From NCBI RefSeq assembly GCF_022846255.1, contig NZ_AP025682.1: a DNA stretch of 64,000 nt, one strand, 5' to 3'. This DNA is from Escherichia coli (GTDB lineage Bacteria; Pseudomonadota; Gammaproteobacteria; Enterobacterales; Enterobacteriaceae). The notes beneath the pieces are model-generated. The model ran no database searches, was not told the DNA's origin, and saw nothing but the letters and a program-made list of their open reading frames with translations. How positions within the stretch are numbered: the stretch's first letter is position 1; every line of letters begins with the position of its first letter. This document shows positions 55,162 through 62,766 of the stretch, piece by piece. A program made the translations under genes and the position numbers.

Positions 55162-57252
55162 TTACGCCTTCGAATCCCGCAACTTGCGACTCAGCCAAAT
55201 CCCGTGATGCGGTCGCTGACGCCATGCCATCGACGAAATGGTGTGCATGGTGTTCAGATGACCAATAACCCGCTGTAAATGCTGCTCCAGCGTACCTGCC
55301 GCGCCTTCGTGCGGCTGCATCTCCGGCGCATCCATGATATTGGCATCGCCAGAACTACCCGGTTCGTCATACTCCAGTCGCTGCTGACAACGCTGAATGG
55401 CGATTTCACAAGACTGTAAATATTCTTGCGCCAGTTCAGGTGGCAATGCCCGGTGTTCCCGTGCCAGCGTGGTCATGGCATTGATATGTTCAACTATAAA
55501 CTGACTGTGCGTTACCCACAGTTTCATATCTGCCAGATAATGGCTGTTGAATGCCGGTTCCTGCATCGCCTGATTCAATGAGTTATACAGAGTGTTATGC
55601 GCCTGATTCACCCGCATTCGCTGCCAGGCCAGTGGCGTTGGTTGCGGGTCCTCGCTCAGAATCAAGCGAATCGCGTCCTGATAGGCTTCTAAAGCGTCAT
55701 GGGCGTTCTTACGCAATAACCCGCTCTGCCACTGCGGCCACAGCCAGACAGTACCGCCGAAAGCAATTAAACAACCAATAATGGTATCGATAAGACGTGG
55801 AAGGATGTACTGCTCACCGTTCAGCCACAACAGTTGCAGGGTATACACTGCGGTAATGGTAAAACCGACCGTCGCCCAGCCGTAGTTTTTGCGCAATATC
55901 AGGTAGCTGGCGAGGGTGGTAATCAGCATCAAGGTCAGGGTGTAACCTTCGGGAATTTTAAAGTGCAGCGCCACGCCCGCAATGATTAACCCGACCACGG
56001 TTCCCACGGAGCGATTCACAATCCTCAGACGGGTTGCGCCATAGCCATTTTGCGTCACCAGCAATACCGTCATCAGGATCCAGTACGACTTCGGCAGATG
56101 CAGTGCGGTGCCCATCAGGCTGGCAACGCTTAACATCACACTGAGTCGTCCGGCATTGCGTAGCGCCGGAGACTTTAGTGACAGATAACTTTTCAGCGCC
56201 GGAAGTAACGGCATTCGCCGCTGTTTATCGGCCAGTAAGTCACGGGCATAGAGCGGTTTTTGGGTGCGCAGCACGCGGGCAATGCGGCTGAAATGCCAGT
56301 AGCAGAATTGCCCAACCGGATTATCCGGGTGTTGGCGGGCGATTTTTTCCAGTGCGCCAATTTGCTTTTCCATCGTAAAACGCGTTGGCAGGCGATGGTA
56401 AAGAATGTCATCAGCCAGCACGCGCAGGCGAGCGGCGACGGTTTGCGCATTCCAGCGGATAACTTCTTCCGCATGGCTACGCTCGACCAGCTTTTGCACC
56501 TCTTCCGGCTGATGCAAACTGACCGAAATATGTTCCTGCAAATCCAGCGCCTCCTGGAAAATACGCAGCATCCGCTTGTAATCGGTATTATTTTGCGCGG
56601 AAAGCATATGCATTTGCTGATAGCACTGGGTAATTAAATCGACCGCTTTTTGCTGGCGCACCAGCAGCGGCGGCAGCGCTTTTTCAGGGTCGGTGTGCTG
56701 GGTAAGCAGGCTGTATTTGGCTTCACAGTAATCTGCCAGTTCACGGTACAGCAGACTTAGTGACTCGCGTAGCGGTTGTTCGCGCCAGATCCAGAACCAA
56801 AACCAGTTAAACAATCCGTACCACAAAGTGCCCAGCGCATAGATGAGCAACGGTTCCCAGACCGGCATGTATCCCGCCAGACTGAGGGTAAAAATGGCGG
56901 CGAGCAGCGATGCGGGAAGCAATTTTGCGTGCAATGGCCCCAGCTCAGCAGTGACGCCAAGTACCAGCGTTAATCCGGTCAGCAAAAAGGGCAGAGGAAC
57001 ATCTTTTGCCAGTAGTAGCTGTGTCAGCAAGCTACAGGTGGCAAACAGCGACGCACCAATGATTAAGCGTTTGAAAAAACGTTTATGAGGCGTATCAAGG
57101 CCCGCAATATTGCAACAGGCAGGAACGAGGGAGAAGAGCAGGCCGAATCGTAATTCGCCAAGCATTAACCCAACGGCCACGGGCAAACATAGCACCAGCG
57201 TTTGTCGAAGTGCATAGTTGATATCGGGGTGATAAATCAGTCTGCGCCACAT
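55162..57252 (-). CDS. yhfK: inner membrane protein YhfK (function unknown)
   Basis: 696 aa from ATG (MWRRLIYHPD) at 57252; large polytopic membrane protein. Confidence 0.85.
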   Translation of the reverse strand: MWRRLIYHPDINYALRQTLVLCLPVAVGLMLGELRFGLLFSLVPACCNIAGLDTPHKRFFKRLIIGASLFATCSLLTQLLLAKDVPLPFLLTGLTLVLGVTAELGPLHAKLLPASLLAAIFTLSLAGYMPVWEPLLIYALGTLWYGLFNWFWFWIWREQPLRESLSLLYRELADYCEAKYSLLTQHTDPEKALPPLLVRQQKAVDLITQCYQQMHMLSAQNNTDYKRMLRIFQEALDLQEHISVSLHQPEEVQKLVERSHAEEVIRWNAQTVAARLRVLADDILYHRLPTRFTMEKQIGALEKIARQHPDNPVGQFCYWHFSRIARVLRTQKPLYARDLLADKQRRMPLLPALKSYLSLKSPALRNAGRLSVMLSVASLMGTALHLPKSYWILMTVLLVTQNGYGATRLRIVNRSVGTVVGLIIAGVALHFKIPEGYTLTLMLITTLASYLILRKNYGWATVGFTITAVYTLQLLWLNGEQYILPRLIDTIIGCLIAFGGTVWLWPQWQSGLLRKNAHDALEAYQDAIRLILSEDPQPTPLAWQRMRVNQAHNTLYNSLNQAMQEPAFNSHYLADMKLWVTHSQFIVEHINAMTTLAREHRALPPELAQEYLQSCEIAIQRCQQRLEYDEPGSSGDANIMDAPEMQPHEGAAGTLEQHLQRVIGHLNTMHTISSMAWRQRPHHGIWLSRKLRDSKA

Positions 57253-57302
57253 CGGGGGAAACAAAATGGCGCGCTACTCAGTAACGCGCCACTCTGACAG
57301 GA

Positions 57303-57935
57303 TTAACGAGTGCCGTAAACGACGATGGTTTTACCGTGTGCGGAGATCAGGTTCTGATCTTCCAGCATCTTCAGAATGCGCCCCACTGTTTCACGAGAAC
57401 AGCCGACAATCTGACCGATTTCCTGACGGGTAATTTTGATTTGCATACCGTCCGGGTGAGTCATAGCATCCGGTTGTTTTGCCAGATTCAGCAGAGTCTG
57501 TGCAATGCGGCCCGTCACGTCGAGGAACGCCAGGTTGCCCACTTTCTCTGAAGTGACTTGCAGACGACGCGCCATCTGTGCAGACAGACGCATCAGAATG
57601 TCCGGGTTTACCTGAATCAATTGGCGAAATTTTTTGTACGAAATTTCAGCCACTTCACAGGCGGTTTTCGCACGTACCCATGCGCTACGTTCCTGGCCCT
57701 CTTCAAACAGGCCCAGTTCGCCAATAAAATCACCCTGATTCAGATAGGAGAGGATCATTTCTTTACCCTCTTCGTCTTTGATCAGCACTGCCACAGAGCC
57801 TTTAACGATGTAGTACAGCGTTTCCGCTTTTTCACCCTGGTGAATAAGCGTGCTCTTGGATGGGTACTTATGAATGTGGCAATGAGACAAGAACCATTCG
57901 AGAGTCGGGTCTGTTTGCGGTTTGCCAAGCACCAT
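57303..57935 (-). CDS. crp: cAMP receptor protein
   Basis: 210-aa ORF; cNMP-binding domain plus C-terminal HTH ([20 protein letters not shown]). Confidence 0.97.
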
Positions 57936-58236
57936 GCGCGGTTATCCTCTGTTATAAGCTTTCTCCAGAGCCAGATAACGCCGCTGTCTCTGGATTGCCG
58001 AAATATGCTTCCCGCTACCTGGGAAGGGGCTATCAACTGTACTGCACGGTAATGTGACGTCCTTTGCATACATGCAGTACATCAATGTATTACTGTAGCA
58101 TCCTGACTGTTTTAGCATAGCTTTCGCTTTGTGTCTCCTGGTGTCTCGCTTCAGCATGACCCAGGTCGCCTTCCGTTGCGCGATTTGGTTAGTACGCGTA
58201 CTCTGTCAGGAAAATTGACGCAGTGGAGTAGCAAAA

Positions 58237-58641
58237 ATGCAAGCGCGAGTGAAGTGGGTCGAAGGGTTAACTTTTCTGGGCGAATCCGCCTCTGGTCACC
58301 AGATTTTAATGGACGGCAACTCAGGCGATAAAGCACCAAGTCCGATGGAAATGGTGTTGATGGCGGCGGGTGGTTGCAGTGCCATCGATGTGGTTTCTAT
58401 TCTGCAAAAAGGGCGTCAGGATGTGGTCGATTGTGAAGTAAAATTGACCTCTGAACGCCGCGAAGAGGCACCACGCCTGTTTACGCACATTAATCTGCAT
58501 TTTATCGTCACCGGTCGCGACCTGAAAGACGCAGCGGTTGCGCGTGCGGTTGATCTCTCTGCCGAGAAATATTGTTCAGTGGCGCTGATGCTGGAAAAAG
58601 CGGTGAATATTACTCACTCGTATGAAGTGGTTGCCGCGTGA
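58237..58641 (+). CDS. yhfA: OsmC-family protein YhfA
   Basis: 134-aa ORF divergent from crp. Confidence 0.88.
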   Translation: MQARVKWVEGLTFLGESASGHQILMDGNSGDKAPSPMEMVLMAAGGCSAIDVVSILQKGRQDVVDCEVKLTSERREEAPRLFTHINLHFIVTGRDLKDAAVARAVDLSAEKYCSVALMLEKAVNITHSYEVVAA

Positions 58642-58695
58642 TTTAACTATCCCGTTGTGAAGCCGGATAGTATTTTATCCGGCGTAATAGCAGCG

Positions 58696-59565
58696 TTACT
58701 CGATTTTCTTTCCTTCCATCAATCGTTGCACCAGCGGCAGCATAATTAATTCCATTGCCAGACCCATTTTGCCGCCAGGCACCACTAACGTATTGATGTG
58801 GGAAATGAATGAGCCCTGCAACATTGCCAGCAGCCAGGGGAAATCGATCCCTTCCAGATTACGAAAATGGATCACCACAAAGCTTTCATCCAGCGACGGG
58901 ATACCTTTTGCCGCGAACGGGTTTGAAGTGTCGACGGTGGGAACGCGCTGGAAGTTAAGATGGGTGCGGGAAAACTGCGGTGTGATGTAGTTGATATAGT
59001 CTTCCATTGAGCGCACTACCGAGTCCATCACTGCTTCTCGTGAGTGCCCGCGCTCGCTGGTGTCGCGGATCAGTTTTTGAATCCACTCAAGGTTAACGAT
59101 AGGCACCACGCCGACCAGTAAGTCCACATGCTGCGCAACGTTATGCTGTGGCGTGACGACGCCGCCGTGTAAACCTTCATAAAACAGTACATCAGTGGGT
59201 TCCGGTAAAGGTTGCCATGGGGTGAATGTCCCCGGTACCTGATTCCACGGTACGGCTTCGTCGTAGGTATGCAGATATTTGCGAGATTTCCCTTTGCCGC
59301 TCTGACCATATTCAATGAAGGTTTGTTCCAGCAGGCCAAAGTCGTTCGCTTCGGGGCCGAAGTAGCTGATATGCCGCCCGGCGTCGCGCGCTTTGCGGAT
59401 CGCCATGTCCATTTCCGGGCGGGTATAACGGTGAAAACTGTCGCCTTCCACCTCGGCTGCATGCAGATTTAACTGCGCGAATATTTTACGAAACGCGAGG
59501 CTGGTGGTGGTGGTCCCCGCGCCGCTGGATCCTGTTACCGCAATGACCGGATGTTTGGCAGACAT
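58696..59565 (-). CDS. prkB: phosphoribulokinase homologue
   Basis: 289-aa ORF with P-loop (AVTGSSGAGTTT). Confidence 0.9.
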   Translation of the reverse strand: MSAKHPVIAVTGSSGAGTTTTSLAFRKIFAQLNLHAAEVEGDSFHRYTRPEMDMAIRKARDAGRHISYFGPEANDFGLLEQTFIEYGQSGKGKSRKYLHTYDEAVPWNQVPGTFTPWQPLPEPTDVLFYEGLHGGVVTPQHNVAQHVDLLVGVVPIVNLEWIQKLIRDTSERGHSREAVMDSVVRSMEDYINYITPQFSRTHLNFQRVPTVDTSNPFAAKGIPSLDESFVVIHFRNLEGIDFPWLLAMLQGSFISHINTLVVPGGKMGLAMELIMLPLVQRLMEGKKIE

Positions 59566-59618
59566 AGTAACTCCATGACTTAGCTATCATTATTATCTCG
59601 TCCGCCGACGGTTGCAGG

Positions 59619-59837
59619 TTATTCGCGAAACTGACTGCGCGGCATGATATTGACCGTTTCGTGCAGCTCCGACCATACCAGCACCGCTTCTCCGCACTGT
59701 AGCTGGCGTTTGACGTCGGCGACTTTCTGTTCAAGTGTACGCTCATGTTCACCATAATCGGTGCCTTCACGTAACACAAAGCTTTCAATTAAATTTTCCA
59801 GCGTTTCGGGGGAGAGGTCTTGCCACGGAATCAACAT
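59619..59837 (-). CDS. yheU: UPF0270-type small protein YheU
   Basis: 72-aa ORF; start overlaps yheT stop. Confidence 0.85.
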
Positions 59838-60853
59838 GATTTCGCCTCCAGATACGTTGTTAACCAGTCAGGAATGCGTGACTCCAGCCACATTTGCGGA
59901 TGAAGTAATGTACCGCCAATAAAGCCAACATGACCGCCATGTTCAGTCAGCTGATACTCCACCTGCGGGGGGAGACTTTCCGGTTTCGGGATCACCTGAT
60001 GATCCATAAACGGATCGTCTTTGGCGTGAATAATCAGTGTCGGTTTGGCTATCCGATTGAGCATCGGCATGGCGCTACACTGACGATAATAGTCAATAGC
60101 GTCAGCGTAGCCGTGAATTCTGGCGGTGATGAGATCGTCAAATTCACGGATGCGACGTACCGATTTTAACTGCGCGAGATTAATCGGCAGTGTGCCGGGG
60201 TAGGCTGCCAGCTTGCGCGCGGCATTGGCTTTTAACAGGTTCAGCAAGTAACGCTGATAAACGCGGGAAAAGCCCTTTTCCATATGGTAACTACAGGCCT
60301 CCAGCATAAACGGCGCAGAGACAATCACTGCCGCATCAATCGGGAGATCATTGCCTTCTTTTGCCAGCAAACAGGCCAGCATATTACCGCCGAGCGAATA
60401 GCCGACGGCAGCCGTTGGCGCATGACCAAACTCGCGTTGCAGCCAGCGTAAAAACCAACTGGCGTCTTCGGTTTCGCCCGAATGGTAAATGCGGTGCATA
60501 CGGTTTGGTTCACCGCTGCATCCGCGAAAATGCATCACCACGCCCAGCCAGCCGCGCTTTTGCGCCGCCTCAACCAGACCGTGAGCGTAAGGGCTATTGA
60601 GACTGCCTTCCAGCCCGTGAAATACCACTAAACGCGGTTTATGCCGCGCCTGTGCAGGATCTTCACTCCACGCGAGATCGACAAAATCGCCGTCGGGCAA
60701 CTCCAGCCGCTGCCAGTACGGGGTGAATTTCACCTTGCGACGGAACAGACGCGGCAGCATGGTTTGTAGATGACAATTGCTAAAGCCGCGCATGGGGGTG
60801 AATTCAGCACTGCTGCTGAATTCATTGGCATCGGTCGTTGTTATCTGCGCCAT
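59831..60853 (-). CDS. yheT: alpha/beta hydrolase YheT
   Basis: 340-aa ORF with GxSxG nucleophile (GYSLGG). Confidence 0.88.
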
Positions 60854-62766
60854 CAGTTGCTTTGGCCTTCCAGCAGCATCTGCTCAAGCTGCTCCTGGGC
60901 TTCCAGCCATGCCATTTCGCACTCTTCCAGGCCGGATTTGGCGCTGGCTTGCTGTTGCAGGCAGGCGGTCAACTCCGCTTTACGGCTTTGATCGTACAGT
61001 TCGCTGTCGCCGAGTTTCTCTTCCGCCTGCGCCAGTTGCGCGTTCAGCTTCTCCATCTCTTTTTCCAGACGGGCAATCTCTTTACGCAGTGGCTGGGTTT
61101 GCGCACGCAGCTCCGCTTCCCGACGCTTCTGATCTTTACGTGCCTGGGCGCTGTTCGCGTTCTCTTTTGGCGCTTCGTCGGTCTGGTTTTCCTGCTTTTG
61201 TACGTCGCTCAACCACTGTTGATAATCTTCCAGATCGCCGTCGAACGGTTCGACTTTACGATCGTGAACCAGGTAGAGATCGTCAGTGGTGGAACGCAGC
61301 AAATGACGGTCGTGCGAGACGACAACCAGCGCGCCTTCGAACTCGATTAATGCTTCGGTGAGTGCCTGACGCATGTCGAGGTCAAGGTGGTTGGTCGGTT
61401 CGTCGAGCAGCAGCAGATTCGGACGCTGCCAGACAATTAATGCCAGCACCAGGCGGGCTTTTTCCCCACCGGAGAAGCGGCGCGTTTCTTCGGTTACTTT
61501 ATCGCCCTGGAAACCAAAGCCGCCGAGGTAGTCACGCAGTTTTTGTTCCAGCTCCTGCGGCGCTAAACGTGCCAGATGTTGAATAGGCGATTCGTCGGCG
61601 CGCAGGTATTCCAGTTGATGCTGGGCGAAGTAGCCGAGCTTGATCCCTTTCGCCAGACCAATTTCACCGCTGACTGGCGCAAGTTCCCCGGCTAACAGTT
61701 TGATTAATGTCGATTTACCCGCGCCGTTGCGGCCTAGCAGACCAATGCGCGAGCCGGGGACCAGATTCAGTTTAATCGAGTCGAGAATAATGCGATCGCC
61801 ATAGCCTGCGCTGACTTTTTCCATCTTCAGTAACGGATTTGGCAGGCTTTCCGGCGCGCGGAAGCTAAAGCGGAACGGGTTGTCGACGTGCGCGGGGGCA
61901 ATCAGCTCCATACGCTCAAGCATCTTAATGCGGCTCTGGGCCTGCTTCGCTTTGGTGGCTTTGGCACGGAAACGGTCGATATAACTTTGCAGATGCGCCA
62001 CGCGTTCCTGCTGGCTTTCATACATCGCTTGTTGCTGCGCCAGACGGGTGGCGCGCTGCACTTCAAACGAACTGTAGTTGCCGGTGTACTCGAACATGCT
62101 TTGTTGTTCGATATGAATAATTTTATCAACGATCGGATCGAGGAAGTCGCGGTCGTGAGAGATCAGGATCAGCGTGCCCTGATAGCTCTTCAGCCATTTT
62201 TCCAGCCAGATAACGGCATCGAGATCGAGGTGGTTAGTCGGTTCGTCGAGCAGCAGCAAGTCTGAACGGCAAATCAGCGCCTGGGCAAGGTTAAGACGCA
62301 TACGCCAGCCACCGGAGAAATCACTCACCGGGCGCTCCAGTTGTTCATTGCTGAAACCGAGGCCGTGCAGCAGGCTGGCGGCGCGGGAGCGAATGCTCCA
62401 TGCGTCAATAGCATCCAGCTTGCCATGAATGGTCGCAATGGCGTGCCCGTCGTTACGTTCGTTGGCGTCGTGTAGCTGCGCTTCCAGTTGACGATATTCA
62501 CGGTCGCCGTCAATGACATATTCCAGCGCCGCTTGCGGTAGCGCTGGTGTTTCCTGATTCACCCACGCCAGTTGCCAGCTTCCTGGAAAGGTGTAGCTGC
62601 CGCCGTCGGCACTGATTTCATTTTTCAGCAATGCCAGCAGGGTAGATTTACCACAGCCGTTTTTACCCACCAGGCCGACTTTCTGCCCGGGGTTGATGGT
62701 GGCGGTGGCATTATCCAGCAGGACGCGCACGCCGCGACGAATTTGTAACGAGGAGAAAACAATCAT
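60853..62766 (-). CDS. yheS: ABC-F family ATPase YheS
   Basis: 637-aa ORF with two Walker A motifs (GKNGCGKST, GRNGAGKST), two LSGG signatures and a C-terminal coiled-coil. Confidence 0.92.
   Translation of the reverse strand: MIVFSSLQIRRGVRVLLDNATATINPGQKVGLVGKNGCGKSTLLALLKNEISADGGSYTFPGSWQLAWVNQETPALPQAALEYVIDGDREYRQLEAQLHDANERNDGHAIATIHGKLDAIDAWSIRSRAASLLHGLGFSNEQLERPVSDFSGGWRMRLNLAQALICRSDLLLLDEPTNHLDLDAVIWLEKWLKSYQGTLILISHDRDFLDPIVDKIIHIEQQSMFEYTGNYSSFEVQRATRLAQQQAMYESQQERVAHLQSYIDRFRAKATKAKQAQSRIKMLERMELIAPAHVDNPFRFSFRAPESLPNPLLKMEKVSAGYGDRIILDSIKLNLVPGSRIGLLGRNGAGKSTLIKLLAGELAPVSGEIGLAKGIKLGYFAQHQLEYLRADESPIQHLARLAPQELEQKLRDYLGGFGFQGDKVTEETRRFSGGEKARLVLALIVWQRPNLLLLDEPTNHLDLDMRQALTEALIEFEGALVVVSHDRHLLRSTTDDLYLVHDRKVEPFDGDLEDYQQWLSDVQKQENQTDEAPKENANSAQARKDQKRREAELRAQTQPLRKEIARLEKEMEKLNAQLAQAEEKLGDSELYDQSRKAELTACLQQQASAKSGLEECEMAWLEAQEQLEQMLLEGQSN

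Follow-up and report, generated by a model that had tools for sequence, protein, structure and literature searches.

The prkB gene of Escherichia coli, carried on a 64,000-nucleotide stretch of DNA (the window), probably encodes a working ribulose-5-phosphate 1-kinase of the CbbP lineage that has been kept without RuBisCO, with its chemistry conserved and its control altered. We place the probability of this reading at about 0.6. PrkB would use ATP to phosphorylate C1 of D-ribulose 5-phosphate (Ru5P) to yield ribulose 1,5-bisphosphate (RuBP), both substrate and product being predictions, and would descend from the same ancestor as the CbbP enzymes encoded in Calvin-cycle operons. The gene has been passed down vertically, without RuBisCO, since the ancestor of the Enterobacterales, Aeromonadales, and Vibrionales and would be expressed as the last gene of a yheS-yheT-yheU-prkB transcript, with co-transcription also a prediction. 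The sugar-phosphate site and catalytic machinery are unchanged; what differs is the lid on the ATP side (R187S, H167 to I/V/T, Y175H), joined in Enterobacterales by the arginines of the presumed NADH site. Because of these lid and C-terminal arginine changes, PrkB regulation is probably unlike that of phosphoribulokinases (PRKs) from autotrophs. What our analysis shows directly is the family and fold of the protein, the conservation of its residues, the purifying selection and vertical inheritance of the gene, its synteny, and that cbb partners are absent. As prkB is a long-annotated E. coli gene, and so is already known as a discovery, what is new here is the picture of vertical inheritance, the selection figures, and the map of lid and C-terminal divergence.

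Locus, family, and active site of PrkB

An earlier note on this DNA had assigned the open reading frame (ORF) at 58696-59565 to the P-loop kinases of the PRK/uridine kinase family and had placed it beside OsmC-like yhfA and the yheU-yheT-yheS group, near crp. Both assignments held, the first by a match to PF00485 across residues 7-214 and the second by the agreement of ORFs with family matches. The features of the locus are as follows.

57303-57935, minus strand: crp (Pfam cNMP_binding and HTH_Crp_2), downstream of prkB and yhfA
58237-58641, plus strand: yhfA, OsmC family (PF02566 and NF008009), convergent with prkB
58662-58683, no strand: perfect 8-bp hairpin, GCCGGATA-N6-TATCCGGC, in the gap separating prkB from the convergent yhfA
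58696-59565, minus strand: prkB coding sequence, 289 aa, ATG start and TAA stop, the sole long ORF there in the ORF listing; its product is classed as a type I (bacterial, CbbP-like) PRK homolog from PF00485, NF011997, the match to 1A7J, and an AlphaFold2 model
59566-59618, minus strand: yheU-prkB spacer, 53 nt, without a conserved promoter or operator
59571-59574, minus strand: GGAG, Shine-Dalgarno element of prkB read from the sequence, 5 nt 5' of the ATG
59619-59837, minus strand: yheU (UPF0270, 72 aa; PF06794 and NF003438), directly upstream of prkB
59831-60853, minus strand: yheT (alpha/beta hydrolase, 340 aa; PF00561 and NF008218)
60853-62766, minus strand: yheS (ABC-F ATPase; ORF), first gene of the presumed yheS-yheT-yheU-prkB transcript

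In the ORF listing, 7 nt at the start of yheU are shared with yheT, which in turn abuts yheS. Of 5426 complete E. coli genomes, 5425 carry a megablast match to the segment 58000-60000, with the RefSeq gene labels prkB, yhfA, yheU, and yheT.

PrkB scored 257 bits against PF00485, the 'Phosphoribulokinase / Uridine kinase family' (cut-off 22; E=1.3e-76). Against the NCBIfam PRK equivalog NF011997, the score was 524.7 bits over residues 1-288 (cut-off 362), whereas the udk equivalogs NF004018 (27.5 bits versus 180) and TIGR00235 (22.7 versus 220.3) fell below their cut-offs. With the PRK model matched above its cut-off and the udk models far below theirs, the sequence classes PrkB within PF00485 as a type I bacterial PRK (EC 2.7.1.19), not a uridine kinase.

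The sole close solved structure was 1A7J, the type I PRK of Rhodobacter (Cereibacter) sphaeroides (phmmer E=7.8e-94, residues 1-288), to which PrkB is 50% identical in a global alignment with one single-residue gap. An AlphaFold2 monomer model built from a 26-sequence alignment (pLDDT 92.3, pTM 0.90) superposed on 1A7J in Foldseek with TM 0.89/0.93 and an rmsd of 2.2 Å over 283 columns, the C-terminal domain included. By the same program, TM values were 0.5-0.64 against cyanobacterial, plant, and archaeal PRKs and ~0.5 against uridine kinases. The conserved C-terminal domain, which provides dimer and octamer contacts in the type I enzyme, makes the model compatible with a PrkB homo-octamer. 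Type I PRKs are NADH-activated, AMP-inhibited octamers, and putative PRKs have been noted in heterotrophic prokaryotes (10.1101/422709).

Residue numbers in our comparisons follow the R. sphaeroides enzyme, so that positions 221, 234, and 257 correspond to K220, H233, and H256 of E. coli PrkB. In the alignment to 1A7J, PrkB has S14, G15, G17, T18, D42, H45, R49, H100, E131, K165, R168, D169, R173, and R186. All of these residues except T18, which was unaligned in one sequence, were invariant in 81 of 81 orthologs, and the invariant columns numbered 126 of 289, with every catalytic residue among them. Apart from the roles cited next, we take the functions of the active-site residues to be those assigned by mutagenesis in the Miziorko laboratory. 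His45 and Lys165 bind Ru5P, Arg168 binds ATP, and the phosphate-binding Arg and His residues are conserved (PMC5241800); in plant PRK, the lid loop carries a catalytic Asp and two Ru5P-binding Arg residues, the equivalents of D169, R168, and R173 (10.1101/422709).

Descent, selection, and expression

A scan taking one genome per species returned at least 598 relatives, the best 80 of which were analyzed. This set spanned many Enterobacterales families (79-99% identity), Aeromonas and Zobellella (75-77%), and Vibrio, Photobacterium, and Grimontia (74-75%). In nearly all 80 loci, yheT-yheU-prkB were ordered on one strand and followed by convergent yhfA and then crp; yheU was the immediate same-strand neighbor of prkB at most loci, across three orders, and linkage to yheS was less conserved than linkage to yheT and yheU. 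The distance from prkB to crp was 0.2-1.7 kb (~2 kb in Zobellella) in nearly all loci reaching that far and ~4.3 kb in three loci with an insertion.

In a neighbor-joining tree, the orphan PrkB clade, comprising Enterobacterales, Aeromonadales, and Vibrionales, was monophyletic (bootstrap 86), and within it Enterobacterales (87) split from Aeromonadales plus Vibrionales (96), a topology that fits the species tree. Monophyly matching the species tree, taken with synteny, therefore argues against recent transfer and decay and indicates that prkB was inherited vertically from the common ancestor of the three orders.

The gene is under strong constraint. First, internal stops were found in none of the 80 orthologs, and all of the ORFs were intact. 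Second, Nei-Gojobori dN/dS values for prkB against 12 Enterobacteriaceae were 0.010-0.042, two to four times lower than those for yheT (0.05-0.10) and yheU (0.03-0.11) and comparable to those for yhfA and yheS, with only crp under tighter constraint. Third, PrkB of E. coli and Vibrio shared ~75% identity, better conservation than for four of its five neighbors (YheT, 49-51%; YheU, 55-63%; YhfA, 62-64%; YheS, 66-67%; CRP, 94-95%). These results bear on the idea that PrkB is a leftover of an ancestral Calvin cycle, drifting to loss and lacking a present function, which would suit both the missing RuBisCO and other cbb genes and the variation of presumed NADH-site positions within Enterobacterales. 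dN/dS values of 0.01-0.04, 80 of 80 intact ORFs over three orders, the invariance of 126 columns, conservation beyond that of most neighbors, and presence in all but one of the E. coli genomes speak against this idea, and we give it almost no credence. From the dN/dS values and residue invariance, prkB is therefore neither a relic nor a pseudokinase; these two results ruled out a relic or pseudogene reading, and relic status is effectively excluded by the selection data.

How prkB is expressed can be judged from its surroundings. In the 53-nt yheU-prkB spacer, a simple scan found no sigma-70 consensus, and a search allowing ≤2 mismatches to TGTGA-N6-TCACA found no CRP box. Across the 12 Enterobacteriaceae, the spacer varied from ~27 to ~100 nt, and the GGAG element alone was conserved. 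A preprint devoted to ABC-F proteins of E. coli takes yheT, yheU, and prkB to be co-cistronic, following yheS (10.1101/2023.06.11.543863). Because the spacer carries no promoter signals, the genes are tightly packed, and the preprint treats them as one unit, we infer that prkB forms the tail of a yheS-yheT-yheU-prkB transcript, although prkB may also have a promoter inside yheU.

prkB has been described as CRP-regulated. Of the two nearest CRP-like sites, one falls within prkB (58981) and the other within yheT (59877), and such sites occur in the window at chance frequency (26 observed versus 25.7 expected). With no site upstream, a count at chance level, and a spacer that is not conserved, a dedicated CRP-dependent promoter for prkB was unsupported. 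The same results bear on whether PrkB might be mainly a non-catalytic or moonlighting protein, for instance a partner of cAMP-CRP signaling or of the YheS translation factor, for which kinase chemistry would be secondary. Linkage to crp and yheS/T/U has persisted over three orders and prkB has no obvious metabolic partner, as such a role might lead one to expect, but gene order by itself is weak evidence in highly syntenic genomes, no CRP box lies near prkB, and the P-loop, the Walker-B glutamate, and the catalytic aspartates are strictly invariant, which points to selection for catalysis itself. We regard a mainly non-catalytic role as improbable.

The hairpin at 58662-58683 is stable on either strand, with folding energies of −15 kcal/mol (z −2.5) in the prkB orientation and −21.4 kcal/mol (z −3.0) in the yhfA orientation. 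It has no U-tract, which is why the terminator scan passed over it, and is a probable bidirectional transcript end or stabilizer. A search of 57000-61000 for structured RNAs and riboswitches gave no Rfam match at E≤1, and PADLOC gave no anti-phage defense match for prkB, yheU, yheT, or yhfA.

Divergence from Calvin-cycle enzymes

We compared alignment columns between 78 orphan-clade sequences and 11 cbb-type sequences. Eighty columns were invariant and identical across both sets, and only four were fixed but different (H69Y, Y175H, L185V, and R187S), three of which fall in the 165-187 lid. Within the lid, H167 is also invariant in the 11 cbb enzymes and is I, V, or T in the orphan clade. Position 187, presumably an ATP-binding lid residue as Arg, is Ser in 81 of 81 orphan-clade members and Arg in 11 of 11 cbb-type sequences; among the other outside representatives, it is Arg in all but one (P0138), which has Gln.

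Where cbb enzymes are invariant and the orphan clade varies, most of the remaining columns belong to the C-terminal domain. Positions 221, 234, and 257, which we take to be the NADH allosteric site of PRK, are Arg-Arg-Arg in 11 of 11 cbb-type sequences and K220, H233, and H256 in E. coli. Kung et al. in 1999 are said to be the source for assigning these arginines to the NADH site. In the orphan clade, R221 is mostly Lys, R234 is His in 56 sequences and Arg in 22, and R257 is replaced by His, Asn, Gln, or others or kept as Arg; in the tree sample, R234 and R257 were kept in Vibrio and Aeromonas and lost in Enterobacterales. Loss of the three arginines was considered as a signature of orphan PRKs and was weakened on two counts. 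One representative (P0149) lacks them yet sits in a TKT-RPE-PGK-PRK-GAPDH-FBA cluster, and arginine loss is therefore not diagnostic of orphan status; moreover, the Vibrio and Aeromonas orphans keep two of the three.

Read conservatively, these comparisons leave the sugar-phosphate pocket and the catalytic residues untouched, whereas the nucleotide-side lid and the regulatory surfaces have changed. The divergence in the lid and C-terminal domain thus suggests conserved chemistry and changed regulation. The same lid changes could instead mark a shift in substrate. PrkB might keep the PRK fold and phosphoryl transfer but act on another acceptor (a ketose or aldose phosphate, or a nucleoside-like molecule) or use another donor, the PRK label having been transferred mistakenly. 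Apart from the clade-fixed changes R187S, Y175H, and L185V and the loss of H167, this alternative draws on the non-cbb context of prkB in every genome sampled, on a literature that implies little native PRK flux, and on a Pfam family that also holds uridine and pantothenate kinases. Several observations reduce its appeal. The reported binders of Ru5P and phosphate (H45, R49, H100, K165, R168, and R173) are all invariant, the fixed changes lie on the nucleotide and lid side and not in the sugar-phosphate pocket, PrkB is 50-60% identical over its full length to authentic PRKs of cbb operons, and the udk models score far under their cut-offs. We consider a change of acceptor or donor somewhat unlikely, though it is the main rival to a Ru5P 1-kinase.

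Some of our results weigh against a working Ru5P 1-kinase. A lid arginine invariant in the sampled cbb-type PRKs is Ser throughout the orphan clade (81 of 81), and activity could be reduced or redirected. In addition, no RuBP-consuming enzyme turned up near prkB, whether in the window or within the 1.52 Mb that flank 80 orthologs, and we know of none for the PrkB product.

Product fate and relation to known kinases

The earlier note had remarked that E. coli has no Calvin cycle for such a kinase to serve and that its role was unclear. Consistent with the first remark, neither the window nor the 1.52 Mb flanking the 80 orthologs yielded a tblastn match to cbbL, cbbM, FBPase, or transketolase. 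A blastn search of 5426 E. coli genomes likewise gave no match to form I or form II RuBisCO (cbbL, cbbM); working at the DNA level, it would miss a very divergent homolog. Strong selection on PrkB implies that its product matters, and PrkB might conceivably feed an unrecognized RuBisCO-like or other RuBP-using enzyme in a cryptic carboxylation or pentose-bisphosphate route of enteric bacteria; archaea do have PRK-RuBisCO pathways outside autotrophy (PMC5241800). Against such a route, however, stand both searches, tblastn having found no RuBisCO large-subunit homolog in the window or around the orthologs, and we judge it very unlikely, although a very divergent RuBP-using enzyme elsewhere in the genome would escape them.

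As to the second remark, full-text literature searches returned no assay, structure, or phenotype of E. coli PrkB and, in the literature searched, no enzymatic assay of any member of the PrkB clade. Mentions of prkB concerned mostly the R. sphaeroides cbb II genes, genome annotation lists, and metagenomic markers; false matches included plasmid names such as pRKbarA. Work on synthetic autotrophy treats PRK as non-native to E. coli, with Synechococcus prkA supplied, and RuBP as usually dispensable for native metabolism, which suggests that in the laboratory E. coli has a negligible PRK flux of its own, or that such flux has simply been overlooked. Heterologous PRK is toxic in E. coli because RuBP is a dead end there, and PRK activity was reportedly missing from E. 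coli extracts in early work. These points, too, count against a working Ru5P 1-kinase.

These circumstances leave room for a more speculative proposal, unlikely as it stands, in which PrkB makes RuBP or a close analog for purposes unrelated to carbon fixation. The product might act as a signal or a brake on growth that conveys pentose-phosphate and ATP status, or might enter an undiscovered RuBP-consuming route; the remodeled lid (R187S) and lost NADH site would represent new control, and yheT-yheU-prkB would form a functional module.

Synthetic Calvin-cycle work relies mainly on E. coli as its chassis, and the field regards PRK as foreign and RuBP as a toxic dead end, yet E. coli and its relatives have retained, from before the split of the three orders, an intact PRK under strong purifying selection similar to or tighter than that on most neighboring genes. 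If PrkB makes RuBP in vivo, then the cell contains an unrecognized metabolite that would have a sink or target, engineering would be affected by background PRK flux and by false positives in RuBisCO selections, and metagenomic surveys that use prk or prkB as a marker of autotrophy would be affected as well. If it does not, a widely propagated equivalog-level annotation is wrong. Why enterics and vibrios conserve a Calvin-cycle kinase so tightly is a genuine question.

The family to which PrkB belongs is compact: an exhaustive search of 1.84 billion representatives gave 183 at E<1e-30, and the full-length representatives outside the enteric cluster were 39-54% identical to PrkB. The closest labeled outside relatives (50-60% identity) come from autotrophs or facultative autotrophs, whose megaplasmids and chromids carry them, and all of the annotated ones sit in cbb clusters, including the following.

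Afipia carboxidovorans: LysR, FBPase-PRK-TKT-GAPDH-PGK-FBA-RuBisCO L/S
Eleftheria terrae: LysR, RuBisCO L/S-RPE-CbbX-FBPase-PRK-TKT
Mycobacterium plasmid, S. meliloti pSymB, Paracoccus (annotated CbbR), and Cereibacter: further PRKs of cbb clusters
P0129: adjoins the RuBisCO large subunit

Outside the PrkB clade, the closest labeled relatives are the CbbP enzymes of beta- and alphaproteobacterial chemolithoautotrophs (for example, Paraburkholderia, Eleftheria terrae, and Afipia carboxidovorans pHCG3B), which are 55-60% identical to PrkB over the full length. Unlike prkB, their genes lie in LysR(CbbR)-controlled FBPase-PRK-TKT-GAPDH-PGK-FBA-RuBisCO clusters, and unlike E. coli PrkB, all of these enzymes keep R187, R221, R234, and R257.

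Orphan PRKs are not unique to the enteric/Aeromonas/Vibrio clade. Two separate lineages, 50-53% identical to PrkB, are represented by P0126 (from marine metagenome contigs) and P0133; like PrkB, both are type I PRK homologs with intact catalytic residues and no RuBisCO nearby. Their genes sit among housekeeping genes with neighbors different from those of prkB (leuS/uvrD for P0126 and ykuD/truA for P0133), and P0126, unlike E. coli PrkB, keeps R187, R234, and R257.

Uridine kinase (Udk) has in common with PrkB a P-loop NMP-kinase-like core and membership in PF00485 (TM ~0.5 over ~205 residues), but is ~210 aa long, lacks the PRK C-terminal domain present in the 289-aa PrkB, and has other substrate residues. 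PrkA/CbbP of R. sphaeroides (1A7J) resembles PrkB in length (290 versus 289 aa), in fold, in an identical GSSGAGT P-loop, and in carrying D42, H45, R49, H100, E131, K165, R168, D169, R173, and R186. The two differ at R187 (Ser in PrkB), H167 (I/V/T in the orphan clade), Y175 (His), and arginines 221, 234, and 257 (K, H, and H in E. coli PrkB), and in setting, as 1A7J-type genes lie in cbb operons with RuBisCO, whereas prkB follows yheT-yheU near crp.

Lineage of the window and transcription and translation around prkB

Among 5426 complete RefSeq E. coli genomes, the highest nucleotide identity to window positions 58000-60000 was 99.5%, not 100%, and the E. coli lineage of the window thus has no exact representative in that set. 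PrkB itself matched one E. coli record (H9) at 100% protein identity, and dS between the window and the GTDB representative of E. coli (L002) was ~0.2-0.4. An antisense transcript of the gene, prkB-as, has been described in E. coli, where it carries a TadA-dependent A-to-I RNA editing event (PMC13170351, mBio 2026).

Antisense feature at prkB
Window 58696-59565, + strand (antisense to prkB): region of prkB-as (name from PMC13170351)

This RNA could originate by read-through from the convergent yhfA gene past the hairpin at 58662-58683, which lacks a U-tract. On the upstream side of prkB, the end of yheT and the beginning of yheU share 7 nt (window 59831-59837), and the yheS stop codon and yheT start have one base in common (window 60853); these overlaps suggest translational coupling along yheS-yheT-yheU.

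prkB loci of relatives

In the symbiont Candidatus Pantoea persica (locus L032), prkB is intact, with 90% identity, and crp and yheU are also present. At the thresholds applied, yhfA, yheT, and yheS were not detected at this locus, a hint that prkB was retained as neighboring genes were lost. Additional DNA separates prkB from yhfA in two other sets of relatives, amounting to ~3.5 kb, with a LysR-type gene inside, in Serratia and Rahnella (L039, L041, L047) and to ~0.9-1.4 kb in Aeromonadales (L067-L075; Aeromonas and Zobellella).

Solved structures and other branches of the type I phosphoribulokinase (PRK) family

After the R. sphaeroides enzyme (1A7J), the solved relatives ranking next for PrkB were PDB 9QKO, 9QKP, and 9QKN, described as 'cyanobacteria-specific PRK' (E ~6e-9 by sequence; TM ~0.64 by structure comparison). 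The three entries were released in April 2026, and one of them was deposited as a uridine kinase.

In the type I family, two branches with full-length sequences carry substitutions at catalytic residues (1A7J numbering): P0132 (312 aa) has G15D and G17S in the P-loop together with D42G, E131R, and R173Q, and P0138 (311 aa) has H45L, R49D, H100N, and R168G. The catalytic motifs of both proteins are thus broken, and each protein may be either a pseudokinase or an enzyme that has acquired a new function.

Two further type I representatives are encoded outside cbb operons. The P0126 gene (L082-L084, marine TARA contigs) is flanked by leuS and uvrD; the P0133 gene (L092/L093) is flanked by truA and a gene for a YkuD-domain protein, with genes for a LysR regulator and triose-phosphate isomerase nearby. 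Because these are additional type I lineages outside cbb operons, orphan PRKs appear to have had more than one origin.
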